From assembly GCA_934096105.1 (NCBI GenBank), contig CAKOLH010000005.1:1094-65093 (forward strand): 64,000 nt of DNA, given 5' to 3'. Below, one piece after another: positions 644 through 59,410 of the stretch (within the stretch, counting starts at the first letter, position 1; every line of letters starts with the position of its first letter). The notes under the pieces were generated by a model. It searched no databases. It was not told the DNA's origin and worked only from the letters and a program-made list of their open reading frames with translations. The translations under genes and the position numbers were made by a program. This stretch comes from an uncultured Bacilli bacterium. GTDB lineage: Bacteria; Bacillota_I; Bacilli_A; RF39; UBA660.

Positions 644-730
644 GGCTTTTATATAATAGATTTTAAATTAAGACTTTATCAAAGGCTTAATTTAACACTC
701 TAAGACTACAGGCTTAGAGTGAACATAATA
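644..730 (+). repeat. Twin-hairpin intergenic repeat, copy A
   Basis: 5' box ggcttttatataatagat. Hairpin 1 at 665-693 (aaattaag/cttaattt). Hairpin 2 at 696-721 (cactctaag-actacagg-cttagagtg). 3' tail aacataata. Same architecture as copies C, D, E and F. Confidence 0.75.
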
Positions 731-737
731 GATGTGC

Positions 738-766
738 TTGTTTATTAATTTATTGTATGATATAAT
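738..766 (+). promoter_or_regulatory. Sigma-A-type promoter for the GT2 gene (TTGTTT-17 nt-TATAAT with an extended TG)
   Basis: -35 TTGTTT at 738-743, 17-nt spacer ending in tga, -10 TATAAT at 761-766. Lies about 30 nt upstream of the start codon at 796. Confidence 0.5.
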
Positions 767-795
767 ACACTTGTAATTTGAAGTGAGGTTGTTGT

Positions 796-2310
796 ATGTA
801 TTTAATGAATATTATAAGTTCGATAGGAGAACATTACTTATCTTGGAGACATGTATATAATGTCATTGGTAGTGTTTTAACTATATTGATGGCCTATAAA
901 ACTATTTATTGGCTTATTGGTTTATTCTTTACTAGGAAGTTTAAGCCAGCGAAGAAAAAACATAAATATGCTATTTTAATAGCGGCGAGAAATGAAAAGA
1001 ATGTTATTGGTAATTTACTTGATAGTATAAATAAGCAAGATTATCCAAGGGAACTTCTTACTACTTTTGTAGTTGCGGATAATTGTACTGATAATACTGC
1101 TGAAATTGCTAGAGAGCATGGGGCTGTCTGCTACGAAAGATTCGATAATGAACATAAAACTAAAGGGTTTGCTCTTCAGTATCTTCTAGAAAAAATAGGA
1201 GAAGACTATGGTAGAATGAGTTTTGAAGGATATTTTATATTTGACGCTGATAATCTTTTAAAGAATGATTATATTAGTAAAATGAATGATGCTTTTGATT
1301 CTGGAGAAAAGATTATTACTTCTTATCGAAATACTAAAAACTTTGATGAAAACTGGATAGCATCTACATATGCAATACATTGGATTAGATCTATTAGATG
1401 TAATCATAGAGCTAGGTCAGTACTTAGATTAGCTACGAATATACAAGGTACAGGATTTTTATTTACTAATGAGATTGTAAAAAATGGATGGCATTATACT
1501 TCTCTTACTGAAGATAGAGCACTTACTGCGGATGCTGTTGCTCAAGGATATAGAATATCTTATCAAGATGAGGCTATGTTTTATGATGAACAACCTACTA
1601 GTTTAAAAGTTGCTTTAAGGCAAAGAACTAGATGGTCTAAAGGACACCTACTTGCCTTTGTTGAATCTGGACCATATCTATTTATTAATATATTCTTTGG
1701 TAAATTATTTTTAAAAACTAGATGGCAGGAAAAGAAGAAGAAGAAAGAAAAGAAAACATTTAAAAGTGTTATGTTATCTATTGTAGAATCTATTAGACAC
1801 AGATTTGCTTCTTTTGATACTTTAATGCAACTTACGCCATTTTCAGTATTTAATCTTGCTAGATGGCTAATTGTTGTAGTTATTATGTATGGCTGCTACT
1901 GCTATAACATGGGAATTAATGGTAGTAATTTATTTAGTGGTAGTACTTATTTAGCAAAGGCTCTTAGAAGTTTATTTGAAATTAAGATAGTAGTTAACCC
2001 TGGTATTAATGCTTTCTTTGTAGGAATGCTTATTTCTATTTGGTTTAGACTTTTATATAGAATAGGTATGTATTTTCAAGATATGTGGATAGCAGTTTAT
2101 GTATTTATTATTGAAAGAAAAAATATTAAAAAGATTCCTTTTATGAAGAAAGTATTATATACTTTAACTTGGCCTACATTTGATATAATTGGTAGATATA
2201 GTACTTATGCTGCTTTATTTATGAAAGTTACTTGGAAGCCTATTCCTCATGATAGTAAAGTTACTATTGATGATATTCATAGTAATAAAGAAGAAAACTC
2301 TAATTCTTAA
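796..2310 (+). CDS. Family-2 glycosyltransferase, integral membrane type
   Basis: GT-A fold motifs: ILIAARNEKNVIGNLLDSINKQDYP, FVVADNCTDNT, FDADN, QGTGF and a QRTRWSKGH-type motif. One N-terminal TM segment and several C-terminal TM segments. RBS GTGAGG lies 7 nt upstream. Confidence 0.8.
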   Translation: MYLMNIISSIGEHYLSWRHVYNVIGSVLTILMAYKTIYWLIGLFFTRKFKPAKKKHKYAILIAARNEKNVIGNLLDSINKQDYPRELLTTFVVADNCTDNTAEIAREHGAVCYERFDNEHKTKGFALQYLLEKIGEDYGRMSFEGYFIFDADNLLKNDYISKMNDAFDSGEKIITSYRNTKNFDENWIASTYAIHWIRSIRCNHRARSVLRLATNIQGTGFLFTNEIVKNGWHYTSLTEDRALTADAVAQGYRISYQDEAMFYDEQPTSLKVALRQRTRWSKGHLLAFVESGPYLFINIFFGKLFLKTRWQEKKKKKEKKTFKSVMLSIVESIRHRFASFDTLMQLTPFSVFNLARWLIVVVIMYGCYCYNMGINGSNLFSGSTYLAKALRSLFEIKIVVNPGINAFFVGMLISIWFRLLYRIGMYFQDMWIAVYVFIIERKNIKKIPFMKKVLYTLTWPTFDIIGRYSTYAALFMKVTWKPIPHDSKVTIDDIHSNKEENSNS

Positions 2311-2322
2311 GAACTAGAGTTT

Positions 2323-4302
2323 TTATATTGTTTTATTTTGTCTTTCTTTTATTTGTTTAAAATAATTATATTTTAATGTTAAATCATTTTTCTTTATTAG
2401 ATAGTTTATATAATAGTTTTTATCTTCAAGTAATAAACTATCTATTTCTTTACCTTTAGTTATAACACCACCATCTACATAGATACTTCCATCATACCAA
2501 GAATAATCACTAAAGAATACTGAACCATGATAGTTATTATCTAAAGCATCAGTACCTATATAATAATTTGAATTATAATCTATTCCATATAGATTTAATA
2601 CTGTAGGTAGTACATTTAACTGTGATGTTACTTCTTTTATTGCTTTCTTATCTTTATTGTTATGCCATATAAAGAATGGGGTATGATTAATTAAGTTATT
2701 ATCTGTTTCTTTATATTTATCTAAGATTGTTTGATCTGATAATGTATATAGATAATGGTCTGTAAATACAACGATTGTTGTGTTATCTAATAAGTTTCTT
2801 TCTGTTAATTCATTTAATAATAATTCCATCATATAATCTGTTTCTTTTGCTTGTCTCCTAGCACAAGATTCTTCAGTCATTTCTGGATATACATAATCTT
2901 TTGGTAACTCCTCTAAGTTGTTTTCACTTAAGTAATCTAGTGTTAATAACTTTCTACAATTACCTTTTTCTGTTGTAAATGGCATATGATTAGTATAAGT
3001 TATGATATAATTAACAAATTTTTCATTTTCAAACATTTTTTCTTTGAATGTTTCATTTAATATTAATTCTCTATCTAAAACATAAGAATCATCTTTATAT
3101 GTTCCTAAATCTACTAGTCCATAATAATTATCATAGCCCCAGTTTTTATAGTTGACTCCTCGTGAATAGTATTCACTAGTATTCATATGAAAGGCATTAA
3201 CTGTGTATCCTTCGTTTTTGAATAGATGGGCTAATGAATATGGAAATGTATTTTTATTAAAAGTATAAGCATTTTGAGTATATGATAAAGGAGTTATAAA
3301 TCCTGTATTAACTGCAAACTCTGAGTTAAAGGTAGAGCCTCCTCCATTGTAATATGAATAATGATTAGTAAAGTTAATACTATTATTCATCATTTTATAT
3401 AATGTAGGAGTATCTTCTTCAGTAATTAACCAGTTATCTATTCCTTCAAGCTGTACTATTATTAAGTTATTATCTTTATATTTTCCTGTGTATTTGTTTG
3501 TCTCTTTTGTCTCCTCTTTATTATATTCTTCCTCAAGGAATGTTAAGTCTTCTTCATTAGTTGTCTTCTTGGCTTTAATAAATGTTACATAGAAATTTCT
3601 TACTGTATATTCGTATACTCCTGATACCATCATACTTTTATTATTATCATTAAAACTCATATATATATTTCTAGGATTTCTCCAGGTACTCCAAGTAAGT
3701 TCTTCATTTGGAGTACCTAATAGAAATGGTATTATAAAATGTAATATTAGAAAAGCAAAAAATACTTTTATTACGCTTTTTAATTTTGTTTTATTTCTAC
3801 TTGGATAAAATTTTAATCCTAAAATAAACGATCCTATTATTGGTACCATTAATATGTATACCCAAATATTACAATCTTTTATAGCATCTAGAAAATATTC
3901 AGAACCTTCTCCTGCAAGCAAAACCATACTAAAGTCAAAAAATGTACCAGTCATTGAGTAATATATATTATTTACTGTATATACTGCAAATGATAATATA
4001 AAGAAGATAATATATATTGTCTTTCCAATCTTTTTCTTATAAAATAGAGAAGCTCCTAATACAAAGAATATCCATGATAGAGTAAATAGTATTGGTACTA
4101 ATTTCATAATTCCATAGAAATGGATTTTATATCCTAATATTTTAGTAAATAAGTCTATTAATATAAATGGTAAGGCTAATATTAATATGTAATAGTATTT
4201 CTTTATTATATCTAATATCTTATTTAGTATCTTTTTTATATCTATATTTTTCTTTTTTATTTTATTATTTTTACTTTTAATCTTTTTTACTTCTTTTGAC
4301 AC
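2323..4302 (-). CDS. LTA synthase / sulfatase-family (alkaline phosphatase superfamily) membrane protein
   Basis: Five or so N-terminal TM helices followed by an extracellular sulfatase-like domain (LIIVQLEGIDNW, GGGSTFNSEFAVNTG, FTDHY). This is the typical LtaS-family architecture. Confidence 0.75.
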   Translation of the reverse strand: MSKEVKKIKSKNNKIKKKNIDIKKILNKILDIIKKYYYILILALPFILIDLFTKILGYKIHFYGIMKLVPILFTLSWIFFVLGASLFYKKKIGKTIYIIFFILSFAVYTVNNIYYSMTGTFFDFSMVLLAGEGSEYFLDAIKDCNIWVYILMVPIIGSFILGLKFYPSRNKTKLKSVIKVFFAFLILHFIIPFLLGTPNEELTWSTWRNPRNIYMSFNDNNKSMMVSGVYEYTVRNFYVTFIKAKKTTNEEDLTFLEEEYNKEETKETNKYTGKYKDNNLIIVQLEGIDNWLITEEDTPTLYKMMNNSINFTNHYSYYNGGGSTFNSEFAVNTGFITPLSYTQNAYTFNKNTFPYSLAHLFKNEGYTVNAFHMNTSEYYSRGVNYKNWGYDNYYGLVDLGTYKDDSYVLDRELILNETFKEKMFENEKFVNYIITYTNHMPFTTEKGNCRKLLTLDYLSENNLEELPKDYVYPEMTEESCARRQAKETDYMMELLLNELTERNLLDNTTIVVFTDHYLYTLSDQTILDKYKETDNNLINHTPFFIWHNNKDKKAIKEVTSQLNVLPTVLNLYGIDYNSNYYIGTDALDNNYHGSVFFSDYSWYDGSIYVDGGVITKGKEIDSLLLEDKNYYINYLIKKNDLTLKYNYFKQIKERQNKTI

Positions 4303-4370
4303 CTAAATCACCACTACTGAAATTATACTATAATATTGTTTTTTTGTAAATAATTTATATAATGTTAACA

Positions 4371-4460
4371 ATTACTAAGACTTTGGTTTAGTAATTTTTT
4401 TGAAGACCTGAGGCTTCAAAAACAGCGAGCAATGAAATGCGAGATGAAATAAATAAAAAA
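4371..4460 (+). repeat. Twin-hairpin intergenic repeat, copy B (subtype II)
   Basis: Hairpin 1 at 4371-4395 (attactaag-actttgg-tttagtaat). Hairpin 2 at 4397-4422 (tttttgaag-acctgagg-cttcaaaaa). The tail cagcgagcaatgaaatgcgagatgaaa is shared with copy G. Confidence 0.7.
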
Positions 4461-4526
4461 CTATTTTCTTTTTAATATTTATTTGGTATAATTTAGTTAT
4501 AATAGAGATAGAAGGAAGGGCTAGTT

Positions 4527-6287
4527 ATGTTTAAAGAAATTACCGCAATTAGTAAAAATTATGCTATTGTTAAAATTGATAATGTAATTAATGATGACTT
4601 ACTTAATTTAAATGTTATTTTTGAAGAAAATAATAAGAAGATATTAGGAGAAATTGAAGAAATAATTAATAGTGAGGCTAAAATTACTTTTTTAGGTGAA
4701 TTTATTAATGATAAGTTTTTTGATGGTATTATTAGAAAACCTAGTATTAATGCTAAAATAAGAATAATTAATGGTAATGAACTAGCAGAACTTACTGGCT
4801 ACAATGATAGTACGGCGATGATGCTTGGACTATCTCCTTTATATAATAATAGCCCTGTTAAAATTAATATTGATGATATGTGGAGTAATCATACCGCTAT
4901 ATTTGGTAATACTGGTAGTGGTAAAACATATGGGGTGGCTAGACTAGTACAAAATTTATTTACTATGCCTAACTATATTCCATTTAATAGTGTTATATTT
5001 ATATTTAATAATACTGATGAATATGATAATGCTTTTAAATCTATTAATAGTTATAATTTTAATTTTAATTACAAGATGTTTAGTACTGATACAGATAGTA
5101 ATAATAATATTTTAAAATTACCTTTATGGCTTATGTCAGTAGATGATTATGCTAATTTACTTGATGTTAGTGCTTATAGTCAAATTATGGTTATTGAAAA
5201 AATGCTTAATTATGTTTCTTTATTTGCAAGAAATGATGAAGAATCTAATAAGTATAAGAATCACTTAATTGCTACCGCTATTACATCTGTTCTTTATTCT
5301 AATCAGGTATCTGCGAGAATAAGAGACCAAATATTTTCTATTTTAACTAGTTGTAGTACTAAAGAACTTAACTTGGACGTTGATGTTCCTGGTGTTGGTT
5401 ATACGAGACAATTTAGAAAATGCTTTGAAATAGATAGTCAGGGACAATTTGCTGAAAGAGTTCTTATTACAGAATATATTAAGAAATTTATTGATAATGA
5501 TACTAAATGGAAAGAAGATTATACACCTGTATATTTTACTATTGATGATTTAGAGGAAGCACTTAATTTTACTTTAATATCTGAAGGAGTTCTTCTTAAT
5601 GAGAAATCTTATGCAGAAGGTACTGCTTTAAAAGTTAAATTACATAGTATTGCTAATAGTTCTTTGAGAAGTTATTTTGAAGTAGAAAAGTTTTGTACTA
5701 TTAATGAATTTATATCTGACTTAATACTAGTGGATGGTAATAAGAGAGCACAAATTATTAATTTTGTACTTGAAGGTATTGATGATAGATTTGCTAAAGC
5801 TTTAGTTAAAATTTATTCTAGAATATTCTTTAATTTTATGAAGAGTCTTCCTTCGAGGGGTTCTATGCCTATTAATATCATGCTTGAAGAGGCTCACAGA
5901 TATGTTCAAAAAGATATTGATAATGATATACTTGGATATAATATATTTGAAAGAATTGCTAAGGAAGGTAGAAAATTTGGTGTTATGATGGATTTAGTAA
6001 CACAAAGACCTACTGAATTATCTGAAACGGTATTATCACAATGTAGTAATTTCTTGATATTTAAAATTAATCATCCTGCTGACTTAGAATATATTGAAAA
6101 AATGGTACCAAACATTAGTAGTGATGTTTTAGAAAAGCAAAAATCACTTCAAGCAGGTACTTGTGTGGCTTTTGGTAAAATGATGAAGATACCTATGATT
6201 GTAAAAATGGAACTTCCTAATCCAGAACCACAGAGTTCAAATGCTCATGTATTTGACAAATGGATGATACAGTGGAAAACTAACTAA
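4527..6287 (+). CDS. HerA/FtsK-type P-loop ATPase (DUF87-like), orphan
   Basis: The N-terminal barrel-like region is followed by Walker A FGNTGSGKTY and Walker B-like INIMLEEAHRY. A conserved GRKFGV...QRP segment is typical of HerA-family ATPases. No nuclease partner gene is adjacent. Confidence 0.65.
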   Translation: MFKEITAISKNYAIVKIDNVINDDLLNLNVIFEENNKKILGEIEEIINSEAKITFLGEFINDKFFDGIIRKPSINAKIRIINGNELAELTGYNDSTAMMLGLSPLYNNSPVKINIDDMWSNHTAIFGNTGSGKTYGVARLVQNLFTMPNYIPFNSVIFIFNNTDEYDNAFKSINSYNFNFNYKMFSTDTDSNNNILKLPLWLMSVDDYANLLDVSAYSQIMVIEKMLNYVSLFARNDEESNKYKNHLIATAITSVLYSNQVSARIRDQIFSILTSCSTKELNLDVDVPGVGYTRQFRKCFEIDSQGQFAERVLITEYIKKFIDNDTKWKEDYTPVYFTIDDLEEALNFTLISEGVLLNEKSYAEGTALKVKLHSIANSSLRSYFEVEKFCTINEFISDLILVDGNKRAQIINFVLEGIDDRFAKALVKIYSRIFFNFMKSLPSRGSMPINIMLEEAHRYVQKDIDNDILGYNIFERIAKEGRKFGVMMDLVTQRPTELSETVLSQCSNFLIFKINHPADLEYIEKMVPNISSDVLEKQKSLQAGTCVAFGKMMKIPMIVKMELPNPEPQSSNAHVFDKWMIQWKTN

Positions 6288-6290
6288 TAT

Positions 6291-6317
6291 AAAGCCTTAT
6301 AAAAAAAGGCTTTTTTT
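6291..6317 (+). terminator. Rho-independent terminator after the HerA-like gene
   Basis: Stem aaagcctt/aaggcttt followed by a T-run. Confidence 0.7.
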
Positions 6318-6318
6318 A

Positions 6319-8030: not shown

Positions 8031-8045
8031 AAGAGGATGATAAAA

Positions 8046-9227: not shown

Positions 9228-9272
9228 AAATTAAATGTACTGAATTAGATTCTAAATCAAATATTTCGTAAG

Positions 9273-9385
9273 GGCTTATATAGATGGATATGGCTGATAT
9301 ATTATTTTGAGACAATATGTTGACTCAAAATAACATTGTAAGACTAAAAAATAAGGCTTACAATGCAAATAAAATAAAAAAATAC
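9273..9385 (+). repeat. Twin-hairpin intergenic repeat, copy C (subtype I)
   Basis: 5' box ggcttatatagatggatatggctgatat. Hairpin 1 at 9302-9333 (ttattttgag/ctcaaaataa). Hairpin 2 at 9334-9365 (cattgtaag-actaaaaaataagg-cttacaatg). Confidence 0.8.
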
Positions 9386-10074: not shown

Positions 10075-11193
10075 ATGAAAATTACAAAAATGACATTAAA
10101 AAAATATCGTAATTATGATAATTTAGAAATTAGTTTTAATGATAATTTAAATATTATTATTGGTGATAATGCTCAAGGTAAAACTAATTTATTAGAATCT
10201 ATTTATGTTCTTGGAGTTACTAGATCTTTTTTATCTGGTAACGATAGGAATCTTATTAAATTTGAAAATAAGGCTTCTTTAATAAAAGGTGAAGTTATTA
10301 CTAATAATGGGAAAATTAATTTAGAAGTTTTAATTAACGAAAATGGTAAAGTAGTTAAAGTAAATAACAAAGAAATTAAAAAACTTAGTGATTACATATC
10401 GTTACTTAATGTTATTGTATTTAATTCTGATAGTATAAGAATATTTAAAGATAGTCCTAATTCTCGGAGAAAGTACTTTAATATTGAAATTAGTCAAATT
10501 AATAAGAAATATTTAAAGTTACTTAGTGATTATAATACTATATTAAGACAGAGAAATGAATTTCTTAAGGTAATTAATGTTAATAAGGAAAATGATATGA
10601 TGTATTTAAGTATATTGAATGAAAAGTATGTACTTTTATCCTTAGAAATATATAACTATCGGAAAAGATTTATTGATGATATTAATATGTATTTGGGTAA
10701 TTCTTTTAAATATATTACTGGATATGATGATTTAATGATTAAATATGTCTCTAATTTTAGTAATTTTGATAAGGAAACTTTTTTAAAAAAACTAAATGAT
10801 AATTTAAGTAGAGATATTCAATATAAAATGACTTTAATTGGACCTAATAGAGATGATTTTTATTTTTTATTAGGTGATAAAAATTTGTCATTATATGGCA
10901 GTCAAGGACAGATTAGAAGTGCTGTTTTAGCTCTTAAATTGTCAGAAGTTAAGTTATTTAGTAATATTACTGGTGATACACCAATACTTTTACTTGATGA
11001 TATGTTTAGTGAATTAGACATAAATAAGAAAAATAATATTTTAAAATTTTTGGATGGTAATATACAAACTATAATTACTACGACAGATATTAAGAATATT
11101 AATGAAAAAATAAAGGAAAAAGCTAATGTTTATGAAATAAAAGAAGGAAAAATTATTTCCCGGGAAATAATTTCCAAGCAGGAAGGTGATTAA
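10075..11193 (+). CDS. recF: DNA replication/repair protein RecF
   Basis: Walker [13 protein letters not shown], signature GSQGQIRS, and Walker [12 protein letters not shown]. Sits in the canonical position before gyrB. Confidence 0.93.
11154..11169. promoter_or_regulatory. Noc-binding-site palindrome (NBS2), TATTTCCCGGGAAATA, inside the recF 3' end
   Basis: A 16/16 match to the NBS consensus. It is the centre of a perfect 22-bp palindrome, aattatttcccgggaaataatt (11151-11172). It encodes KIISREII. Confidence 0.65.
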
Positions 11194-11195
11194 AT

Positions 11196-15761: not shown

Positions 15762-15772
15762 GTTATGTATAT

Positions 15773-15788
15773 TATTTCTCGGGAAATA
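15773..15788. promoter_or_regulatory. Noc-binding-site-like palindrome (NBS3), TATTTCTCGGGAAATA
   Basis: Identical to NBS1 (15/16 to consensus). Intergenic, about 190 bp upstream of the first parS. Confidence 0.55.
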
Positions 15789-15889
15789 ATTATTATTAGA
15801 TAAGATAAAATATCTGAGATAGCAAACAAATGTTTGCTATCTCGGATTGCTTACTAAACTTGTATTTTTTGTAGAAATATGATATAGTG

Positions 15890-15970
15890 TTGTTGATACA
15901 ACATTAATGGTGGAATCAAGTCAGGGGCGGAAGCCAGCAGCTTTAACATTTAATTAATGTGTGTATCTTT
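15890..15970 (+). ncRNA. ffs: Signal recognition particle RNA, short (4.5S-like) type
   Basis: Domain IV core GUCAGGGGC-GGAA-GCCAGCAGC at 15920-15941. It carries the conserved UCAGG / AGCA loops around a GGAA tetraloop. The core is closed by a long helix (GATACA-ACATTAAT ... ATTAATGT-GTGTATC) and followed by a T-run (15968-15975). The exact ends are approximate. Confidence 0.8.
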
Positions 15971-15975
15971 TTTTT

Positions 15976-17104
15976 ATGTTCCACGTGAAACATAAATATT
16001 AACTACTTTATTATTAGAAATATATCTACTATGTTATTATTATTATTTTAACTTTTGTTAATAATATATAATATAAAACCGAATATTAAAAGTTTTGTTT
16101 TTTATGAAATTTATTTATATTTTTCATTATTATTATTTTATAACTTATGTTCCACGTGAAACGTAAGTTTTCCACAGATTATTTATAATGACAAAAAGTA
16201 ATTACTTAAGTTTATCTTTTGATTTTAATATATACATTAATAAGTAAGACATCTTACTTATTTTAATATTTATTAATATAACGTTTCATGTGGAACGTAA
16301 ATATCCACAGTTTTACTGGTTAGTATATATCTTTGTAAAACATATTATTTAGTGTTATTCATATTCTATTATATATTTGATTATTTAAATTTTACCTTAC
16401 GCTTTTTTAACTATTATCATTTTAACAATGATAGTAATGTTCCACGTGGAACATGAGTTTTCCACAACTTTTGTATATAACCTTATTGTATCGTGTATTT
16501 TACATTTTTAATTATGTCCTCTTTTTATAAAAAAGAGTGAATTATATCATTAATTTTGATTAAAATTAATATTTTTATTGTTTTAATTTATTTATGTTTC
16601 ACGTGAAACATAAATATCAACAGTTTTTTATTTAAATGTATATATAAAAATATAATTATTGTTAAAAATCTATTTGATATTATTATTAATGTACTATTTT
16701 AACCTAAAAAATAAAATTATTACATTTTTAAACTCATTCTTTTATAATTAATTATATTTTTTGATAAATATAGTAATGTTTCACGTGAAACATGAGTTTT
16801 CCACAATTTTTTGTATAGATTTATTTTATTATGCATTGCGTTTATTTATTTTAATGTATTTTTTATAAAAAAGAGTGAATTATATCATTAATTCTAATTA
16901 AAATTGGTATTTTTATTGCTTTAAATTGATTTATGTTTCACGTGAAACTTTAACATCAACAGTTTCTATGATTGAAGCAGATATATATAATACGATTATA
17001 ATTAGAGTTATTTTGAATGTTATTATAAATATTATTATTTAATTTTCAAATTTGTGTTTTACTAATTAATTTTACTAAAAAAACTGATGTTCCACGTGAA
17101 ACAT
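15976..17104 (+). repeat. Array of eight parS (ParB/Spo0J centromere) sites; six are fused to a DnaA-box-like 9-mer
   Basis: The 18-mers are: 15976-15993 atgttccacgtgaaacat; 16147-16164 atgttccacgtgaaacgt; 16281-16298 acgtttcatgtggaacgt (degenerate); 16437-16454 atgttccacgtggaacat; 16594-16611 atgtttcacgtgaaacat; 16776-16793 atgtttcacgtgaaacat; 16933-16950 atgtttcacgtgaaactt; 17087-17104 atgttccacgtgaaacat. The consensus equals parS, TGTTNCACGTGAAACA. The downstream 9-mers are TTTTCCACA at 16168, 16458 and 16797; ATATCCACA at 16301; ATATCAACA at 16614; and ACATCAACA at 16953. Confidence 0.85.
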
Positions 17105-17671: not shown

Positions 17672-19342
17672 GTGAGTTATTTAGCTTTGTATAGAAAATA
17701 TAGACCTGTTGATTTTGATAATGTGTATGGTCAGGAAGAGGTAGTAACTGTTATTAAAAATGCAATTAATAATAATATGGTTTCGCATGCTTATTTGTTC
17801 TGTGGTCCTAGGGGTACTGGTAAAACTACTATTGCTAAGATAATTGCTAGGATGGTTAATTGTGAAAATTTGATTGATGGCAAGCCTTGTGGTAAATGTT
17901 ATAATTGTATTAACTTTCTTAATAGTAATGATATAGTGGAAATTGATGCTGCTTCGAATAATGGTGTTGATGAAATTAGAGAACTTAGGGATAAAATTAA
18001 TCTTGTGCCTAGTAATGCTAAATATAAGGTTTATATTATAGATGAAGTTCATATGCTCACTACTCAAGCTTTTAATGCTCTTTTGAAGACTCTTGAAGAA
18101 CCTCCGGCACATGTTATTTTTATTTTGGCTACTACAGAGCCCCATAAAATTCCACTTACTATCGCTTCAAGATGCCAAAAATTTAGATTTACCAAGATCA
18201 ATTCAAAGAAGATTGTTGATAGATTAAGAGAAATAGCTAAACTTGAAAACATTGCTATTGATGAAGATGCTCTTTATGAAATTGCACGAATTTCTGATGG
18301 CGGAATGAGAGACGCTATTAATTTTTTGGATCAACTTGTTGCCTATGATAATAAAACAATTACCCTTGATGATATCTATAAGGTAAATGGATCAGTTTCT
18401 TATAATGATATTTATTTATTACTCAAATCAATTGTTGACAATGATAAGGTTGAAATTATTAGATTTTTTGATACGTTTGATAGCAGTGGAAAGGATATTA
18501 ATAAATTTGCTTCTGAATTAATATTGTTTTTAAAAGATGTAATTTTATATAATAATGCTAAATTACTATCTGATATTGATATTAAAAATGAAAATATTAT
18601 ACTTGTTAATGATTTGTATGATTCTAAAATTGTTTATGAGTTAATTGAAAAACTTAATGAAATACAAAATTCTCTGAGAACTTCAACGCATGGCTGTATT
18701 TTATTTATGACTGCTATTTTGAAATTTTCCGATAATTATTTTGAGAATTTTATTGATAATAATTTAGAAAAAAAGGTTGTAGATAATACTACTAAAAATG
18801 AAAATAAAATTATTTCCCAGGAAATAATTAAAAAAAATATAAATAAAATTGAAAATAAGAATGAACAAATAAATGATGAGGCAAATATTGAAAATATTAA
18901 CATCAGAATTAATAATGCTTTGGCTACCGCAAATAAGGAAAGCTTAAGTAAAATTAAAGAACAATGGTCTTTAATAGATGAGTATTTATATGATGATGTT
19001 TATTCTGTTGTTGCTGGATTATTAAAGGATTCTATACCTGTGGTAGCTTCTGAAAAATATATTATTGTTTCAAATAGTCTTGAATCTGTAGCCAACCGAA
19101 TTAATGATAATTTTTCTTTGATAGATGAATTTCTTTTGAAAATATTTAAAAATAAAATTTTAATTGTTGGTATGTCTAATGATGATTGGAATGTTGAAAA
19201 AAATAAATATATTTCTAATATTAAAAATGGTATTAAATATATTGAAAAAGATTTTATTAATACTGATAGGGTTAAAAATAAAAAATCTTCTGTTGATGAA
19301 CTTATTGATTTAATGGGAGAAAATATAATAGAATATAAATAA
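17672..19342 (+). CDS. dnaX: DNA polymerase III subunit gamma/tau
   Basis: GPRGTGKTT, a zinc module CGKCYNC, DEVHMLT and SRCQ. GTG start with GGAGG upstream. The C-terminal part is N/K-rich and poorly conserved. Confidence 0.93.
   Translation: MSYLALYRKYRPVDFDNVYGQEEVVTVIKNAINNNMVSHAYLFCGPRGTGKTTIAKIIARMVNCENLIDGKPCGKCYNCINFLNSNDIVEIDAASNNGVDEIRELRDKINLVPSNAKYKVYIIDEVHMLTTQAFNALLKTLEEPPAHVIFILATTEPHKIPLTIASRCQKFRFTKINSKKIVDRLREIAKLENIAIDEDALYEIARISDGGMRDAINFLDQLVAYDNKTITLDDIYKVNGSVSYNDIYLLLKSIVDNDKVEIIRFFDTFDSSGKDINKFASELILFLKDVILYNNAKLLSDIDIKNENIILVNDLYDSKIVYELIEKLNEIQNSLRTSTHGCILFMTAILKFSDNYFENFIDNNLEKKVVDNTTKNENKIISQEIIKKNINKIENKNEQINDEANIENINIRINNALATANKESLSKIKEQWSLIDEYLYDDVYSVVAGLLKDSIPVVASEKYIIVSNSLESVANRINDNFSLIDEFLLKIFKNKILIVGMSNDDWNVEKNKYISNIKNGIKYIEKDFINTDRVKNKKSSVDELIDLMGENIIEYK
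18811..18826. promoter_or_regulatory. Noc-binding-site-like palindrome (NBS4), TATTTCCCAGGAAATA, inside dnaX
   Basis: Matches the consensus at 15 of 16 positions, within aattatttcccaggaaataatt (18808-18829). It encodes KIISQEII in the variable linker of DnaX. Confidence 0.5.
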
Positions 19343-28310: not shown

Positions 28311-28425
28311 TTTATGTTCACTAGTAAGCCTTATGTATAAGTCTTACTAGTGTTATTTTTAGCCTGTAGTCTAAAAATAATGTACCAACCGTACATATTA
28401 TATATAAGCAGGTTATATATATTAA
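28311..28425 (-). repeat. Twin-hairpin intergenic repeat, copy D-minus (full copy, inverted orientation)
   Basis: Read on the minus strand it has three parts. The 5' box is gcttatatataatatgtacggttggtaca. Hairpin 1 at 28353-28380 is ttatttttag-actacagg-ctaaaaataa. Hairpin 2 at 28319-28352 is cactagtaag-acttatacataagg-cttactagtg, followed by aacataaa. Confidence 0.75.
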
Positions 28426-28463
28426 GAAATTAATTTTAGTAGTTATATAATATGAAATGCTTT

Positions 28464-28516
28464 AATACTGAGACTTTAGGCTCAGTATTGCTTAGAGAGA
28501 CCTTATGCTCTCTAAG
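28464..28516 (+). repeat. Twin-hairpin intergenic repeat, copy D-plus (hairpin pair only)
   Basis: Hairpin 1 at 28464-28489 (aatactgag-actttagg-ctcagtatt). Hairpin 2 at 28491-28516 (cttagagag-accttatg-ctctctaag). Confidence 0.65.
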
Positions 28517-28536
28517 AAAAAAATAATAAATAATAC

Positions 28537-41178: not shown

Positions 41179-41210
41179 AAAAACATCTAAATTATTTTAG
41201 GTGTTTTTTT
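41179..41210 (+). terminator. Rho-independent terminator
   Basis: Stem aaaaacatctaaa/tttaggtgttttt followed by a T-run. Confidence 0.8.
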
Positions 41211-41220
41211 ATATATTTCT

Positions 41221-41335
41221 GGCTTATATATGATAGGTATGGCTGATACACTATTTTTAGATTATAAGCTAAAAATAGCACTGAAAGACTTATGAAATAA
41301 GGCTTAAAGTGAACATAAAGAATAAATAAAAAAAG
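41221..41335 (+). repeat. Twin-hairpin intergenic repeat, copy E (subtype I)
   Basis: 5' box ggcttatatatgataggtatggctgataca. Hairpin 1 at 41251-41278 (ctatttttag-attataag-ctaaaaatag). Hairpin 2 at 41279-41311 (cactgaaag...cttaaagtg, imperfect). Tail aacataaag. Confidence 0.8.
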
Positions 41336-48002: not shown

Positions 48003-48049
48003 ATAAAAAGTTGTACTTCGGTATAGCTTTTTTTAAATCTTATGATCTT

Positions 48050-48150
48050 GCTTATATATAATAGATATGGCTGATATATTTATTTGAGACAATACTTTGG
48101 CTCAAATAAACACTTTAAGACCTAGGCTTAAAGTGAAACAAATAAAAAAT
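48050..48150 (+). repeat. Twin-hairpin intergenic repeat, copy F (subtype I)
   Basis: 5' box gcttatatataatagatatggctgatatat. Hairpin 1 at 48079-48110 (tttatttgag/ctcaaataaa). Hairpin 2 at 48111-48135 (cactttaag-acctagg-cttaaagtg). Confidence 0.8.
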
Positions 48151-51124: not shown

Positions 51125-51127
51125 GAA

Positions 51128-52897: not shown

Positions 52898-52909
52898 AGG
52901 GTGATTTAT

Positions 52910-53812: not shown

Positions 53813-54690
53813 AAATAAGTAAGAATGAAAAGTTTGATATTAAAAAACTAGAGAAAATTATTAAAGATAAAAATACTTATTATAATTTTTTTCTCTTTAT
53901 AATGGGGATGGCTCTTAGTGCTATTTCTGTTAGTGTATTTTATTCTCCTAATGAAGTAGTTACTACTGGTAGTACAGGACTTGCAATTATACTAAACAAA
54001 TATTTAAATATAGATTTATCATTATTAGTGTTATGTTTATCGTCAATGTTACTTGTTTTATCTTTTTTAGTATTTGGCGTTAATTATGGATCAAAACATA
54101 TTCTTGGTACATTATTATTTCCAGTATTTTTAAAGAGTGCTACTTTAATTAATAGAGTTGTTAATTTTGAAGGAGTATCTTTATTTCTACTTATAGTTAT
54201 TGGCGGAGTACTTTCTGGTATTGGCTTTGGACTAGTTAAAAGAAGTAACTATAGTCTTGGGGGATTTTACGTATTATATGATATTATTAATAAAAGATTT
54301 AAAATATCTATAGGTAAGGCTAGTTTGGTATGTAATAGTATAATTATAATACTTAGTATATTTACTTTTGGCATAGATAAATGTATATATGCTATTATTG
54401 GATTATATATGACTAGTTATTTTGGTGATAAGATAATGCTTGGTATATCTAGTAATAAGGCTTTTTATATTATTACTAGAAAACCTTCAGAAGTTAAAGA
54501 ATATATTATTAATAATTTAAATCATACTGTTACTGTGGTAAAAGCAAAGGGAGGCTATAGTGATAGAAAAAAAACTATGCTTCTTTGTGTAATACCTACC
54601 GTAGAATATGTAAAAATGAAAGAGGTTATTAAAACAATAGATGAAAGGGCTTTCTTCTTGGTTACTGATAGTTATACAGTGTCTAAGTAG
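53809..54690 (+). CDS. YitT-family membrane protein (DUF2179 C-terminal domain), paralog 2
   Basis: Same architecture as paralog 1 (TVVKAKGGYSDRKKTMLLCVI). There is a 4-nt overlap with paralog 1. Confidence 0.8.
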   Translation: MKISKNEKFDIKKLEKIIKDKNTYYNFFLFIMGMALSAISVSVFYSPNEVVTTGSTGLAIILNKYLNIDLSLLVLCLSSMLLVLSFLVFGVNYGSKHILGTLLFPVFLKSATLINRVVNFEGVSLFLLIVIGGVLSGIGFGLVKRSNYSLGGFYVLYDIINKRFKISIGKASLVCNSIIIILSIFTFGIDKCIYAIIGLYMTSYFGDKIMLGISSNKAFYIITRKPSEVKEYIINNLNHTVTVVKAKGGYSDRKKTMLLCVIPTVEYVKMKEVIKTIDERAFFLVTDSYTVSK

Positions 54691-54775
54691 AAAAATTATG
54701 TAAAATAATCAATAGTGGTTTAAAAAATATTGAAATAATGGTATAATTAATTATACAGATATGGAGGTAGTAAAA

Positions 54776-55471
54776 GTGGAGTTAATTAGAATTAGTGATG
54801 TTCAAAAGACTTATAAAACTGGTACCGTAGCACTATATGATTTTAATCTTAGTATTAAAAAGGGCGAATTTGTATTTGTAATAGGTGCTTCAGGTAGTGG
54901 TAAGTCTACTTTGATAAAAATGTTATATAGGGAAGAAAAACCTGATAAAGGTTCTATAATAATAGGTGGTATTAATGTAGCAAAACTTAGAAATAGAAAA
55001 GTATATGCTCTAAGAAGAAAGTTAGGAGTAGTCTTTCAAGATTTTAAACTATTACCTAAGCTTACAGTATATGAAAATGTAGCTTTTGCTATGGAAGTAC
55101 TAGGATATGATAAAAAAGAAATACATAAAAGAGTAATGGATGTTCTTGACTTGGTAGGATTAAAAAATAAAGTAAGACAGTTTCCAGACCAATTATCTGG
55201 TGGTGAACAACAAAGAGTTGTTATAGCAAGAGCGATTGTTAATAAACCTAAACTTCTTATATGTGATGAACCTACAGGTAACTTAGATCCTGATACTTCA
55301 ATGGAAATTATGAAGGTACTTGATGAAATTAATGCAATGGGAACTACAATCATAATGGCTACTCATGATAGAGATATTGTTGATAGAATGAAGAAAAGAG
55401 TTATAGTACTTGATAGAGGAAGACTTGCTAAAGATATAGAGAAAGGAAGCTACTGCAATGAAAAGTTTTAG
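54776..55471 (+). CDS. ftsE: Cell division ATP-binding protein FtsE
   Basis: Walker A GASGSGKST, signature LSGGEQQR and Walker B LLICDEPTGNLD. GTG 54776 lies 8 nt after GGAGG and is preferred. ATG 54761 is an alternative. Confidence 0.9.
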   Translation: MELIRISDVQKTYKTGTVALYDFNLSIKKGEFVFVIGASGSGKSTLIKMLYREEKPDKGSIIIGGINVAKLRNRKVYALRRKLGVVFQDFKLLPKLTVYENVAFAMEVLGYDKKEIHKRVMDVLDLVGLKNKVRQFPDQLSGGEQQRVVIARAIVNKPKLLICDEPTGNLDPDTSMEIMKVLDEINAMGTTIIMATHDRDIVDRMKKRVIVLDRGRLAKDIEKGSYCNEKF

Positions 55472-56378
55472 AAGTATAAGAAGATATTTTAGAGATGCTA
55501 TTCATGGAGTATTTAGAAACTTTTCTTTATCACTTGCATCAATTTCATGTATAACTATTACTTTAATAGTAGTGGCAGTATCATTAATTTTATCTTATAA
55601 TGTTGAACACTTTTCTGACTCAATTAGAAAAGATGTAACTGTAGTTATGTTTTTAAAGAAAGAAACTACAAAAGAAGATTTAACTAAAATAAAAAAAGAA
55701 CTTGAAAGTATTGAAAATATTGAAAATAGTAGTATTGAACTTAAAACTAAAGAAGAATCTGCTAATGAATTGAAAAATGGTAATGAAATATTTGCCACTA
55801 CTGTTGATAGATGGACTGAAGAAACAAACCCCTTGCTTGATAGTTATATGTTTAAAGTAAAAGATATTGTTCAAATAGATGATACAGTAAAAGAAGTAAA
55901 AAACTTATCTTTTTCTAAAGATAAGATAAATAATATTAATTATGGAGAAGATATTGTACACCAATTAATTGAAGTATTTAATGTGGTAAAGAAAATATGT
56001 ATAGTAGCAGTTTTATCACTAGTTCTAGTTACAGCATTCTTGATTGCTAATACTATTAAACTTGCAATATATTCTAGAAAAAGAGAAATTGAAATAATGA
56101 GACTAGTAGGAGCTTCAAATATATCTATTAAGATACCATTCATTATTGAAGGATTATTTATAGGACTTCTTGGTTCTATAGTACCAATACTTATTACAAT
56201 ATTTGGTTATACTTCTTTATATGATTACTTTGGTGGTAAATTATTTGGTTCTGGCCTTGCTGAACTAGTTAATCCAATGCCATTTATATATCAAGTATCA
56301 GGTGTACTTGTAGCTATTGGTATTGTTGTTGGTATGATAGGTAGTTACCAAGCAGTAAGAAAATACTTGAAAATATAG
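55458..56378 (+). CDS. ftsX: Cell division permease-like protein FtsX
   Basis: TM1, an extracellular domain, then three TM helices with the REIEIMRLVGAS motif. Overlaps the ftsE stop. Confidence 0.9.
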   Translation: MKSFRSIRRYFRDAIHGVFRNFSLSLASISCITITLIVVAVSLILSYNVEHFSDSIRKDVTVVMFLKKETTKEDLTKIKKELESIENIENSSIELKTKEESANELKNGNEIFATTVDRWTEETNPLLDSYMFKVKDIVQIDDTVKEVKNLSFSKDKINNINYGEDIVHQLIEVFNVVKKICIVAVLSLVLVTAFLIANTIKLAIYSRKREIEIMRLVGASNISIKIPFIIEGLFIGLLGSIVPILITIFGYTSLYDYFGGKLFGSGLAELVNPMPFIYQVSGVLVAIGIVVGMIGSYQAVRKYLKI

Positions 56379-56390
56379 TGTTTTCTTTTT

Positions 56391-56825
56391 TTAATCAATT
56401 TTACCACATAACCAATCTAAAGATAATTTATATTTAATTGCTATTTCATAAACAAAACTTGTTAAAATTAAAGTTTTACCTGACTCGTAAGCACTAATAG
56501 TAGAATGAGTTGTATTTAAGTCTTTAGCAAGTTCTTCTTGAGTTATATCAAATTTATGTCGTGTATATAATAATCTCTTTCCGACTATTTTAGGATCTAT
56601 AGATTTATTTATAATCTTATATTCCTTTACATTGCTTATTTGCAAAATGTAATCTAAACTAACATTAAAATAATTAGAATAGATATTAAGTTTTTCTAAG
56701 GGTATTATTTCTTTACCTGTTTCCCATTGAGAAATGGCAACTCTACTGACATTTAGTATTTTTCCCATATCTTCTTGTGTTAGGTCTTTTTCTTCTCTTA
56801 AAAAAAATAGTCTTTCAAAATTCAT
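56391..56825 (-). CDS. XRE-family transcriptional regulator with two tandem HTH domains
   Basis: HTH 1: LREEKDLTQEDMGKILNVSRVAISQWETGK. HTH 2: RHKFDITQEELAKDLNTTHSTISAYESGK. The start was moved to ATG 56825 (MNFERLFF) with a GGTGA RBS. The upstream part of the ORF-track frame is hydrophobic read-through. Confidence 0.8.
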   Translation of the reverse strand: MNFERLFFLREEKDLTQEDMGKILNVSRVAISQWETGKEIIPLEKLNIYSNYFNVSLDYILQISNVKEYKIINKSIDPKIVGKRLLYTRHKFDITQEELAKDLNTTHSTISAYESGKTLILTSFVYEIAIKYKLSLDWLCGKID

Positions 56826-56931
56826 ATTAATCACCATATCAATTTTCCCATTAAAAATGTAAAAAAATGAATTTGTGTAAGAAAATACGACAAAATATGA
56901 TATAATATATTTGAGAGGTAGGTGAAAAATA

Positions 56932-58023
56932 ATGAAAAAAGAAAAAGACATCAATTATTACAGAAGTTTATTACACAAAGATATTATTGCTCTATTAATA
57001 GTAGCAATTATTAGCACAATAATAAATTTATTGTTTATGGGAAAGGGCCATGATGAAGCTGTACTAATATTTTTAAAATCAATTATGTTTATAATTATCT
57101 CTATAATTATAATATGCAATAAAAAAGAAATAAAAAAGTTTATTGGAACATTAAGTATAATTACTGGCTGTTTAATGATATTAACATCAATAGGTGACGG
57201 CTCATTGTTTGGTATAGTATATTTTTTATTAGGAATATTTTTAGGAGTACATTCTTTCTTCTATTTGAAGAAATTTAGTAATAATGATACTCAGGTTGAT
57301 TATTCAAATGAGGTTATTGTCAAAAATAGAAAAGTAAAATATATATCTTTAATACCTATTTTTATAACTATAGTTTTAGTTATATTAGGATTTGTATTTA
57401 ATCAATCTTTAATAGGCATTTCTTGGTGTAGTATATTAATTTTGCTTGTAAATATCGCGAATATTATTTTATGTATTATTTTACATCATAAGAAAATAAA
57501 ATCAGTACTTATTTACATAATTCTAGTTATATCTATAATGATAACGTTATTCAGTGGCTTATTTTTAATAGATGAAATTGGACAAAAAATAAGAAAAACT
57601 AATTATTATGATAGTGAAAAATTTTTAATTGAATATGCAAAAGAAGCAGAAGAAGATTTAAAAGATGATATAGTTCAAGCAGGAAATCTAAAAAAATTAA
57701 ATATAGATATTTCAAAAGAAAATGTAATAACATTAGATGATTTTTTAAGTACTATATCAACAAATGAAATTTTATCTAATCATATATATTCTATAAACGA
57801 GTTAGAAAAAAATGGTTATTCTTGTAATGGCTATGCTATTTTAAAATTTAAAGATACAGCAGATAAAGACCGTTACAATCTAATATTAAAAGAAGAATAT
57901 AATGATATCACTAATATGAATAGATTTTTTGACATCAGCACTTATATAAGTTGCTCTGGAAAATATTCATATAAAACAAATGGCTTTAATGAAGATATTA
58001 TTAATACTAAATTGGATAATTAA
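56932..58023 (+). CDS. Hypothetical polytopic membrane protein with a C-terminal soluble domain of about 150 aa
   Basis: About 7-8 TM helices followed by a hydrophilic domain with no recognisable motif. Divergent from the XRE gene. A TGATATAAT promoter and GAGGTAGGTGA RBS lie upstream. Confidence 0.6.
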   Translation: MKKEKDINYYRSLLHKDIIALLIVAIISTIINLLFMGKGHDEAVLIFLKSIMFIIISIIIICNKKEIKKFIGTLSIITGCLMILTSIGDGSLFGIVYFLLGIFLGVHSFFYLKKFSNNDTQVDYSNEVIVKNRKVKYISLIPIFITIVLVILGFVFNQSLIGISWCSILILLVNIANIILCIILHHKKIKSVLIYIILVISIMITLFSGLFLIDEIGQKIRKTNYYDSEKFLIEYAKEAEEDLKDDIVQAGNLKKLNIDISKENVITLDDFLSTISTNEILSNHIYSINELEKNGYSCNGYAILKFKDTADKDRYNLILKEEYNDITNMNRFFDISTYISCSGKYSYKTNGFNEDIINTKLDN

Positions 58024-58066
58024 ATAATAAAAAAATTAGAATAAACAAAATTTAAGGAGTTAAAAA

Positions 58067-58612
58067 ATGAGTGAAATATTAATAACTAAAATTACTTTTG
58101 GAATACTTTTGTCAATAGGTTCTTTTGTATTATTTGTTTTGTCATTTAAACTATTTTATAAATATTTAATACAAGAAAAAAGATGTACTTCGAAAGTTAA
58201 AGGAATAATCAAAAAATATACATTAGCAACCCGTGGAGGAGAAAATAGTGGTATTCATTTACCTGTTGTGCTTTATATTGTAAATGGTAAAGAATATAAA
58301 GTTGTGGGTCCTGAATATAAAGCATATAAAATAATAACAAAAAGTAGTCCATATAATAAAAATGAAATAGAATATAAAGAAGAAAATCAAATTTTAGAAA
58401 TAAATAGGACTTCTAATTCTTTTGTGGGTGTTTATAATAATCCAATTGAAAAATTATACCCAATAGATTCGGAAATAGATGTTTATTACGACCCTGATAA
58501 TCCTAAATTATCTTATGTTTTAAGATATTGTAATAAAAAATGGGCATTCTATTTAATGTTTTGTTCTGCATTATTTTTAGTAATTGACTTATTAATTTTA
58601 CTGACATTATAA
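58067..58612 (+). CDS. DUF3592-like membrane protein
   Basis: TM helix, then a beta-rich middle domain (C.SKVKGII...VVLYIVNGKEYKV...IDVYYDPDNP), then a C-terminal TM helix. This architecture is typical of DUF3592. Confidence 0.55.
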   Translation: MSEILITKITFGILLSIGSFVLFVLSFKLFYKYLIQEKRCTSKVKGIIKKYTLATRGGENSGIHLPVVLYIVNGKEYKVVGPEYKAYKIITKSSPYNKNEIEYKEENQILEINRTSNSFVGVYNNPIEKLYPIDSEIDVYYDPDNPKLSYVLRYCNKKWAFYLMFCSALFLVIDLLILLTL

Positions 58613-58673
58613 ATAAACGGCAATAAAATATAATCAAAAATTCAAACTAAAACTATATTTATGTAAAATATTT

Positions 58674-58702
58674 TATATATCAACATATCCTGTTGATATA
58701 TA
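58674..58702. terminator. 12-bp perfect hairpin between convergent genes (possible bidirectional terminator)
   Basis: tatatatcaaca-tatcc-tgttgatatata with A/T-rich flanks and no clean T-run. Confidence 0.35.
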
Positions 58703-58706
58703 AAAA

Positions 58707-59258
58707 TTATCTATATTTTCTTATTTTCTTATATTCATTAATACCATATTTTTCATTTAATGTATCATAAAAAATAAATTTATGCGGTGGATTATAAGTT
58801 AAATAAATAAAACCTAGATATATTATAATTATTATAGGAACTGAAAGTGCATTTAATACTTTTAGTTCTTTTTCTTTTAATATATTATAACTTACTATTT
58901 GACCTATAATATATACTATTATCATGAGAGTTATTGATATAAACATAGATTCTCCTAATAACTTATATAGAGGTATATATATTACTAAGTATAATGGTAT
59001 TTGCATTATTGGAATGAAATATGTATTAAATGGTAAATTATTATATGTAATGTTATATTTCTTTAAAAGAATATATTCTATTAAACTGTATATTAATGTT
59101 GAAGTAAATAATATTTTCATATGTTCCCAAATGCTTTCATTTACTGGAAAGATAAATGAAAAGATAATATTAGGAAAAATATCATAAACAAAATGTGATA
59201 TAAAAGATAATATAGTTATAATAATTACTCCAAGTATTTTTATTTTCTTTAAATTCAT
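58707..59258 (-). CDS. Hypothetical polytopic membrane protein (183 aa)
   Basis: 5-6 TM helices with a PVNESIWEHMK motif. The family is not confidently recognised. Confidence 0.55.
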   Translation of the reverse strand: MNLKKIKILGVIIITILSFISHFVYDIFPNIIFSFIFPVNESIWEHMKILFTSTLIYSLIEYILLKKYNITYNNLPFNTYFIPIMQIPLYLVIYIPLYKLLGESMFISITLMIIVYIIGQIVSYNILKEKELKVLNALSVPIIIIIYLGFIYLTYNPPHKFIFYDTLNEKYGINEYKKIRKYR

Positions 59259-59316
59259 ATATTTATACTCCTTTATTTATTATATTATTATTATAACTAA
59301 ATAATTAAAAAATATT

Positions 59317-59410
59317 AATTTTAGAGATTATAAGCTCTAAAATTCTTTATGAAGACTTAATGGCTTCATAAAGCATCGAACAACAAAGTGTGAGATGAAA
59401 AAACTAATAA
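59317..59410 (+). repeat. Twin-hairpin intergenic repeat, copy G (subtype II)
   Basis: Hairpin 1 at 59317-59344 (aattttagag-attataag-ctctaaaatt). Hairpin 2 at 59345-59373 (ctttatgaag-acttaatgg-cttcataaag). The tail catcgaacaacaaagtgtgagatgaaa resembles that of copy B. Confidence 0.75.

Follow-up and report, generated by a model that had tools for sequence, protein, structure and literature searches.

To our knowledge, repetitive extragenic palindromes (REPs) have been well studied only in Proteobacteria, where they are explained by the RAYT transposase. Small structured intergenic repeats also include BOX, RUP and SPRITE of Streptococcus pneumoniae and Correia of Neisseria, which are modular and lineage-restricted, number about 100 copies or more, and have proposed effects on the transcription of neighbouring genes. 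In IS608, an insertion sequence (IS), hairpin imperfections serve as recognition features. Here we describe a family of intergenic repeats, built of directly abutting hairpins, in a 64,000-nucleotide (nt) stretch of contig CAKOLH010000005.1 (hereafter the window, meaning the whole stretch that was analysed) from an uncultured gut Bacilli bacterium. The family is real and abundant, is restricted to one genus, and consists of REP-like repeats made of tandem hairpins. The element most probably acts, and spread, as folded single-stranded DNA that is read at a mismatch-bearing apex by a putative protein. An earlier reading of the letters of the window (the sequence-only reading) had noticed eight copies and had proposed, among other candidates, a REP/MITE-like element recognised by its structure, which the data now favour as the best reading.

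REPs carry a conserved GTAG (or CGTC) tetranucleotide at one palindrome end, and in E. coli the RAYT cleaves single-stranded REP DNA only if residues at the edge of the loop are mismatched (PMC3733652). The loop-edge mismatch is also presented as a key feature in a second report (PMC3479197). The present family resembles the REP, bacterial interspersed mosaic element (BIME) and REPIN-RAYT systems of Enterobacteria, Pseudomonas and Stenotrophomonas in consisting of short extragenic palindromes at gene ends, with more than 100 copies per genome, composite clusters and a copy number very unequal among related species. Also alike are a mismatch at the loop edge, here with a putative role in recognition, and the stems, which stay paired while their sequence classes differ. 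In contrast to those systems, the hairpin foot bears no GTAG/CGTC tag, the hairpins form direct abutting tandems rather than inverted pairs (REPIN) or alternating units (BIME), and the stems are rich in AT and, within a single genome, much more varied. No RAYT gene was found, the Y1 transposases of the genus being ordinary IS200/IS605 enzymes with unrelated ends, and the host belongs to an uncultured, reduced lineage of gut Bacilli with 27% GC.

The palindrome-associated elements derived from IS200/IS605 (PATEs) are similar in lacking terminal inverted repeats and target duplications, in carrying same-strand subterminal hairpins, and in inserting beside a short preferred sequence, here the T-rich TYTWRR or the T-run of a terminator. 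However, no cognate TnpA was found for the present family (the tnpA-tnpB pairs of relatives and the solo tnpB of the source genome have different ends), there is no strong bias toward the lagging-strand template, and the elements are two to four hairpins with little else. A full-length IS with the same ends encoding TnpA was not found in comparisons across the genus or in the self-comparison of a closed genome (G015). The CGTC-type REPs and the Rickettsia palindromic elements are likewise abundant palindromes without a known dedicated transposase (PMC3733652), but they differ in tag, sequence and hosts and are single palindromes, some of them inside genes, whereas 215 of the 219 hairpins counted here are intergenic. 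In BOX, RUP, SPRITE and Correia, either sequence modules are conserved or terminal inverted repeats occur together with target duplications; here only an 8-nt apex is conserved. Classical miniature inverted-repeat transposable elements (MITEs) have the terminal inverted repeats and target-site duplication that are absent here. Integron attC sites, which have conserved R''/R' core sites (RYYYAAC / GTTRRRY), cassette arrays and an IntI integrase, were considered only by analogy, as single-stranded DNA that is recognised through its structure. The hairpin feet are variable here, direct reading revealed no cassette array, and IntI was not searched for. Since the family did not pass the tests that define REP/RAYT, IS200/IS605-derived elements or classical MITEs, it is a variant of the REP-like kind that is set apart from all three.

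Copies in the window and their architecture

A twin-hairpin covariance model (R1) was built from 17 equal-length twin hairpins located elsewhere in the genome and was run over the whole window with filters off. Its matches were exactly the eight sites listed by the sequence-only reading (E 3e-12 to 1.3e-7), and direct reading confirmed the coordinates and stems that had been given for them. R1 scores of these sites on the opposite strand were 25-39 bits lower. Folding as single-stranded DNA predicted abutting hairpins for all eight copies (z-scores -4.4 to -10.3), and the strand that reads AGAC..GGCT (the top strand) was more stable than its complement by 0.9-3.7 kcal/mol in 8/8. The copies, with hairpins designated HP0 to HP3, and one further palindrome are as follows.

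Copy A (subtype I), 627-730, plus strand: 5' box (TATATA 633-638, GGCTT 644-648, no HP0), HP1 663-695, HP2 696-721, tail GAACATAA; R1 match 663-721, 61.4 bits, E 3e-12; DNA fold -17.5 kcal/mol, z -10.3
Copy B (subtype II), 4370-4446, plus strand: HP1 4370-4396, HP2 4397-4422, HP3 4423-4446 with tandem G.A; R1 match 4370-4422, E 1.9e-9
Copy C (subtype I), 9255-9375, plus strand: 5' box (GGGCTT 9272-9277), HP1 9302-9333 with the apex decayed from GGCT to GACT, HP2 9334-9365, tail diverged; R1 match 9302-9365, E 1.3e-7
Copy D-minus (subtype I, inverted), 28312-28425, minus strand: tail 28312-28321, HP2 and HP1 within 28319-28380, 5' box to 28425; R1 match 28319-28380, E 5.4e-9
Copy D-plus (bare twin hairpin), 28463-28517, plus strand: HP2 apex degenerate (TGCT); R1 match 28463-28516, E 5.7e-11
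Copy E (subtype I), 41211-41322, plus strand: R1 match 41251-41311, E 1.5e-8
Copy F (subtype I), 48036-48143, plus strand: R1 match 48079-48135, E 4.1e-10
Copy G (subtype II), 59317-59397, plus strand: HP1 59317-59344 with apex AGAT..AGCT (T-A in place of C-G), HP2 59345-59373, HP3 59374-59397 (CATCGAAC..GTGAGATG) with tandem G.A; R1 match 59317-59373, E 1.1e-9
Plain palindrome in the parS island, 16239-16262, no strand assigned: 10-bp stem with loop ACAT; not a member; R1 13.5 bits, E 0.36

The last of these had been described as family-like, but it is an ordinary palindrome that lacks the apex GG. Copy B is upstream of a DUF87/HerA-like gene adjoining dnaA, at a site whose orthologues are kept, with differing stems, in 13 species. 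A repeat finder also picked up copy C, as families D4 and D15. D-plus and D-minus form a head-to-head pair upstream of a T-box leader. Copies E and F begin directly 3' of terminator T-runs (41204-41210, behind the stem 41184-41203 of the preceding gene's terminator, and 48029-48035, respectively).

The genome holding the window (G000; 1.18 Mb, 47 contigs, 26.9% GC) was scanned for the pattern stem-AG-A-Y-loop-R-G-CT-stem. The scan yielded 219 hairpins at 152 loci, and the reversed genome, used as a control, yielded 1. This corresponds to about one element per 8 kb, or roughly 1-1.5% of a 1.2-Mb genome, and the earlier count of at least eight copies was understated about 20-fold.

Stems nearly always measured 10 bp in HP1 and 9 bp in HP2, and were Watson-Crick paired and very variable in sequence. 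The apex was constant and consisted of A-T, G-C, an A.G mismatch and C-G (sometimes T-A), followed usually by a tetraloop ending in A or, alternatively, by a short extra helix. The A.G mismatch, one pair below the loop, was invariant. Conservation of sequence was confined to the 8-nt apex and the stems varied freely.

The elements were 55-135 nt long and had three architectures. Subtype I (A, C, D-minus, E and F; about 128-135 nt) has the layout TYTWRR / TATATA..GGCTTATATATAATAG, an optional small hairpin (HP0), HP1, CA, HP2 and GTGAAYATAA. HP0 lies in the 5' box and covaries (ATAT-gtag-ATAT, GTAT..ATAC, ATGC..GCAT), and a degenerate family hairpin (TATATAG-ATAT-GGCTtATATA) is probably present in the box as well. 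Subtype II (B and G) has HP1, HP2 and a third hairpin, always with a tandem G.A/A.G. Subtype III comprises bare twin hairpins with neither box nor tail, typically CATAAGGAAG.. and then CCTCTTAAG..; D-plus is of this kind with different stems. Hairpins inside one element were always direct and abutting, and inverted pairs of whole elements, such as D-minus/D-plus, were occasional. No conserved tag was found at the hairpin feet, GTAG being seen only as the HP0 loop of some subtype I copies. The structural description in the sequence-only reading was correct as far as it went; it did not include the apex mismatch, HP0 or subtype III, and the tail that it assigned to subtype II is the third hairpin. 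One subtype I element (G000 C7:14432-14560) contains a 33-nt hairpin unit (CTAACACTATTAAGACTTAGAATAAGGCTTAAT) three times in tandem, indicating that hairpin number can rise through local duplication.

Stem covariation and the folded form

RNA stems under selection normally tolerate many G.U pairs. Among 1764 stem pairs of the family, G.T accounted for 11 (0.6%) and A.C for 6. The most frequent non-Watson-Crick pairs, as read on the top strand, were G.A, A.G and A.A, with 46 purine-purine and 19 pyrimidine-pyrimidine mismatches. The scarcity of G.T and the asymmetry of mismatches toward the top strand suggest that one particular strand folds, and that it does so without RNA pairing rules.

Coupling of the two arms was strong both between orthologues and among paralogues, which bears out the covariation described from the window. 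Comparison of 457 orthologous stem pairs of G000 and G017 revealed 12 single changes and 6 compensated double changes. Independent change would be expected to give about 0.3 (at the stem rate) to 0.8 (at the flank rate) double changes, only about a third of them complementary. Between the two genomes, the loops had diverged by 11.4%, the flanks by 4.1% and the stems by 2.6%. At the copy-B locus, where orthologues vary in loop length and the series was compared by direct reading, the 13 species had 3-4 different stem states, all fully paired, and the tandem G.A of the third hairpin was conserved. The proposal that covariation implies selection for the folded structure was borne out in part: the data fit selection on pairing, but they fit arm-to-arm template switching equally well. 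Half of the compensated double changes were transversion pairs, so template switching at the DNA level also fits. Arm-to-arm templated correction of hairpins during replication has been described (PMC8794818). Together, the scarcity of G.T and the excess of compensated double changes favour a folded single-stranded DNA element, REP-like, rather than RNA.

A family of structured RNAs survives best among the alternatives. On this reading, which we consider unlikely, subtype I would encode a small RNA transcribed from a promoter inside the 5' box, where GGCTTATATATAATAG contains a perfect TATAAT. The other subtypes would be elements of 3' untranslated regions or processing elements, with the apex mismatch and tandem G.A as protein-binding RNA motifs (e.g., for an L7Ae-type or another hairpin-binding protein), and this too we regard as unlikely. 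The third hairpin keeps its tandem G.A/A.G duplex even with the loop on the other side, mismatches and fold energies are asymmetric toward the top strand, and old copies retain their structure across the genus, all of which would suit an RNA; however, G.T pairs are no commoner than other mismatches, and the transversion pairs among the compensated changes cannot pass via a G.U intermediate. Although subtype I is co-oriented with flanking genes at about 2:1, some 40% of elements run antisense to the genes on both sides, and the antisense orientation predominates in subtype III. Most elements are found past a terminator, and most have no following U-run.

The 5' box does contain an invariant TATAAT/TATGAT with a weakly conserved T-rich block 17-18 nt upstream, but HP0 starts right after this putative -10, so the predicted start site would cut HP0. 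The promoter TTGCTT-17/18-TGaTATATT that the sequence-only reading had placed in the box was not picked up by a consensus promoter scan at E or F, where the scan found nothing in the 5' boxes. Two loci that have only the 5' box (G000 C4:72853 and C27:194) have other promoters for their downstream genes, and a promoter in the 5' box was rejected on the scan of E and F. A scan of the window against Rfam at gathering thresholds found only the T-box leader and the signal recognition particle (SRP) RNA and no match to the family, and permissive scans of copies F and G gave chance-level matches only. This agrees with the earlier statement that the repeat could be placed in no named family. At C27:194-500, a strong promoter (TTGAAT-17-TGATATAAT) lies about 75 nt downstream of the copy that has only the 5' box, and drives what seems to be a structured non-coding RNA with a terminator at its end.

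Distribution, insertion and genomic position

R1 found matches in 23 of 24 further species in the genus, in none of 16 genomes from beyond it and, among 201 genomes of the order, in 1 of 98 genera, namely this genus. The family is confined to one genus. Copy number ranged from 0, 1 or 2 to about 125 without a simple relation to relatedness, so that expansion has been very unequal among species of the genus.

Insertion polymorphism was found at several sites. Sites E and F, around ychF, carry an element both in the window and in UMGS1185 and are empty in G002/L002 and in two more distant relatives (L003 and L004); E and F are thus gains. The empty-site junctions at E and F fall at the terminator T-run. 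Over 330 kb of G002 that were compared, 9 of 15 comparable G000 sites were empty in G002, and in the reverse comparison 1 of 10 G002 elements was missing in G000, with a clean junction. Subtype I copies that are 94-96% identical have unrelated flanks and sharp boundaries. Alignments of these pairs across their boundaries and alignments of empty sites revealed no terminal inverted repeats and no target duplication; the element ends TATATA.. and ..GTGAAYATAA are not inverted copies of each other and are not flanked by direct repeats. Five subtype I copies (G000 C1:45735, C2:46879, C2:71461, C4:24791 and C15:19644) follow paralogous surface-protein genes, whose stop codon falls within the element's 5' terminal TYTWRR block (cTAAgTATATA), which suggests that these copies were duplicated together with the gene ends.

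It is distinctly unlikely, in our view, that the elements are immobile structural sites of the host chromosome, that is, cruciform or hairpin palindromes that selection has spread and maintained, for instance as supercoil sinks or gyrase sites, as sites for nucleoid proteins, or as signals related to lagging-strand priming or to the replication fork. Long-term persistence at the same loci with an intact structure (copy B in 13 species, and a pair past a second HerA-like gene in 6) and the failure to find a transposase are consistent with such a role, and E. coli REP/BIME sequences reportedly bind gyrase and IHF (PMC2817692). However, copy number varies from 0-2 to more than 100 among species that share core genes, which would not be so for an essential function; near-identical copies with unrelated flanks and lineage-specific insertions are signatures of mobility; and strand-asymmetric mismatches oppose a symmetric, double-stranded cruciform role.

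Across the genome, elements in either orientation are nearer to the stop codon of the upstream gene than to the start codon that follows. In G000, they are present in 12 of 38 convergent, 107 of 471 tandem and 14 of 81 divergent gaps. Where a separate terminator is present, the order is terminator and then element in 46 cases and the reverse in 18. The claim that copies always lie just upstream of promoters did not hold: the elements lie close against gene 3' ends whichever way they face, and the 12 occupied convergent gaps are promoter-free. Promoter insulation fails genome-wide for the same reason, the nearest landmark being the upstream stop codon or terminator. Co-orientation with the next plus-strand gene at 65-110 bp before start codons is true of the window but is not a property of the family. 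Genes downstream of elements have their own promoters because the elements are intergenic. Relative to neighbouring genes, subtype I was sense in 39 cases and antisense in 20, and subtype III in 4 and 12, respectively. With respect to replication in G000, subtype I was leading in 50 cases and lagging in 23, and subtype III in 6 and 13; the split in the closed genome G015 was 48/47. G015 (1.46 Mb) has an absolute excess of plus-strand hairpins (87/36) in both replichores. Simple open reading frame (ORF) calling gives it a coding density of 44%, with in-frame stops in many core genes, which points to an error-rich long-read assembly or extensive pseudogenisation.

That the elements are lineage-specific terminators or insulators at gene ends, blocking read-through in either direction, is very unlikely: elements hug stop codons (subtype III lies 7-54 nt after them), convergent gaps are enriched relative to divergent ones and the scan called HP2 of copy F terminator-like on the minus strand, but an element hairpin is itself followed by a T-run in only 20 of 115 element-bearing 3' regions, in contrast to intrinsic terminators, the U-run is absent after most elements, the 14 elements in divergent gaps have no gene end beside them, and termination does not need an invariant apex mismatch. 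A separate canonical terminator is present in 64 of the 115 regions (56%), which is not below the 46% of element-free regions, and the elements were rejected as terminator replacements.

Proposed mechanism, partner candidates and significance

We give an even chance to the explanation that this is a genus-specific family of non-coding, REP-like tandem-hairpin elements that work as folded single-stranded DNA, with the apex read by a candidate protein. The key unit would be a hairpin of the top strand (AGAC..GGCT), for which any Watson-Crick stem of 9-10 bp may suffice, and the invariant apex (G-C, A.G mismatch, one C-G pair and a small loop) would be the feature recognised by a putative structure-specific protein. 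Elements would be copied as discrete units into gene-poor spots beside gene 3' ends, typically directly after the T-run of an intrinsic terminator, and copy number would then have expanded to very different degrees among the species of the genus. After insertion, the arms may stay complementary through selection, through arm-to-arm templated correction (template switching), or both, while loops would drift fast and some old copies would be retained at the same locus across the genus.

Several observations weigh against this explanation. The tandem G.A motifs and the long-kept copies would suit an RNA or a host function too. A strict replication-orientation bias, as in IS200/IS605, is absent. 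G017, whose ychF gene is 96% identical, shares all 33 comparable sites, which gives no hint of ongoing activity and indicates that activity is not recent. A Y1/HUH transposase (RAYT, PF01797) is absent from the metagenome-assembled genomes of G000 and most high-copy species. IS200/IS605 elements were rejected as partners: they occur in 8 of 30 species as ordinary tnpA-tnpB pairs with unrelated ends and hairpins, and they do not track copy number. No multicopy transposase was found in G000, whose multicopy genes belong to surface-protein and phage-type DNA-binding families only. Self-comparison of the closed genome G015 revealed only IS3-type ISs and surface-protein repeats, none with family hairpins. 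As metagenome-assembled genomes may miss a carrier plasmid or phage, the absence of an enzyme is weak evidence either way.

Other partner candidates also failed. The solo TnpB gene of G000 (C8:10836-11948) has a 3' region unrelated to the elements, and a search for genes bracketed by elements ('REPtron' search) gave nothing consistent. ORF6N-domain proteins are encoded by four genes in G000, each followed by an element, but G019 has 72 elements and no such gene and G006 has one element and seven genes. These genes (G000 C21:13906-15806 and C7:48373-50346) are four paralogues of about 290 amino acids, with 0 to 13 copies across the genus and a conserved C-terminal domain that has no Pfam match and contains an HDRFIIID motif.

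In low-copy genomes, the best or only element copies adjoin one HerA-like (DUF87) paralogue. However, 30 of 30 species of the genus have both paralogues, and HerA-like matches extend to 94 of 98 genera of the order, so the ATPases were rejected as partners; the linkage reflects old copies rather than a specific partner. The two paralogues of each species are 41% identical (window 4527-6287; G000 C3:67927-69672). The first is directly upstream of dnaA-dnaN. The second is followed, in at least six species, by an antisense twin hairpin that lies 61-68 nt beyond the stop codon, and the only two twin hairpins of the low-copy genome G021 are that conserved pair, between the second HerA-like gene and a convergent uvrA.

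Three other features of the window were recorded. A second, unrelated palindrome, ATTATTTC(C/T)CGGGAAATAAT, possibly a terminator or binding site, occurs at least four times in the window, at 602-622 (just 5' of copy A), 11152-11172, 15771-15790 and 18809-18829, and also at the contig end of G000 C42. A cluster of parS-like palindromes (TGTTCCACGTGAAACA) occupies gene-free DNA at 15976-17104, downstream of gyrA and adjoining the SRP RNA gene (15885-15982); the repeat finder detected it as families D1-D3. A 2.27-kb segment (56401-58672) is missing from the nearly identical UMGS1185 contig (L001) and is a strain-level indel that carries three ORFs (56391-56954 on the minus strand, 56932-58023 and 58067-58612).

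There is a slim chance that the family is the substrate of a new kind of hairpin-specific single-stranded DNA enzyme, not a Y1/HUH RAYT, that copies hairpin arrays to terminator T-runs. Such a putative enzyme would recognise only the 8-nt apex with its fixed A.G mismatch, on any Watson-Crick stem. If so, a REP-like system of independent origin would be present in a reduced gut Bacilli genus, and arms continually re-symmetrised by template switching would make its elements natural, self-maintaining palindromes.

The tandem-hairpin family is as abundant as REPs, but it occurs in uncultured, AT-rich gut Bacilli, has another architecture and has no RAYT that we could find. In practical terms, such repeats break metagenome assemblies and, when covariation is screened for, mimic structured RNAs; they could also be used as markers for strain typing. 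The family also provides a clean natural data set on the co-evolution of hairpin arms, including compensated double changes by transversion pairs between genomes about 4% apart, which bears on whether 'compensatory' substitutions need selection or can come from template switching.

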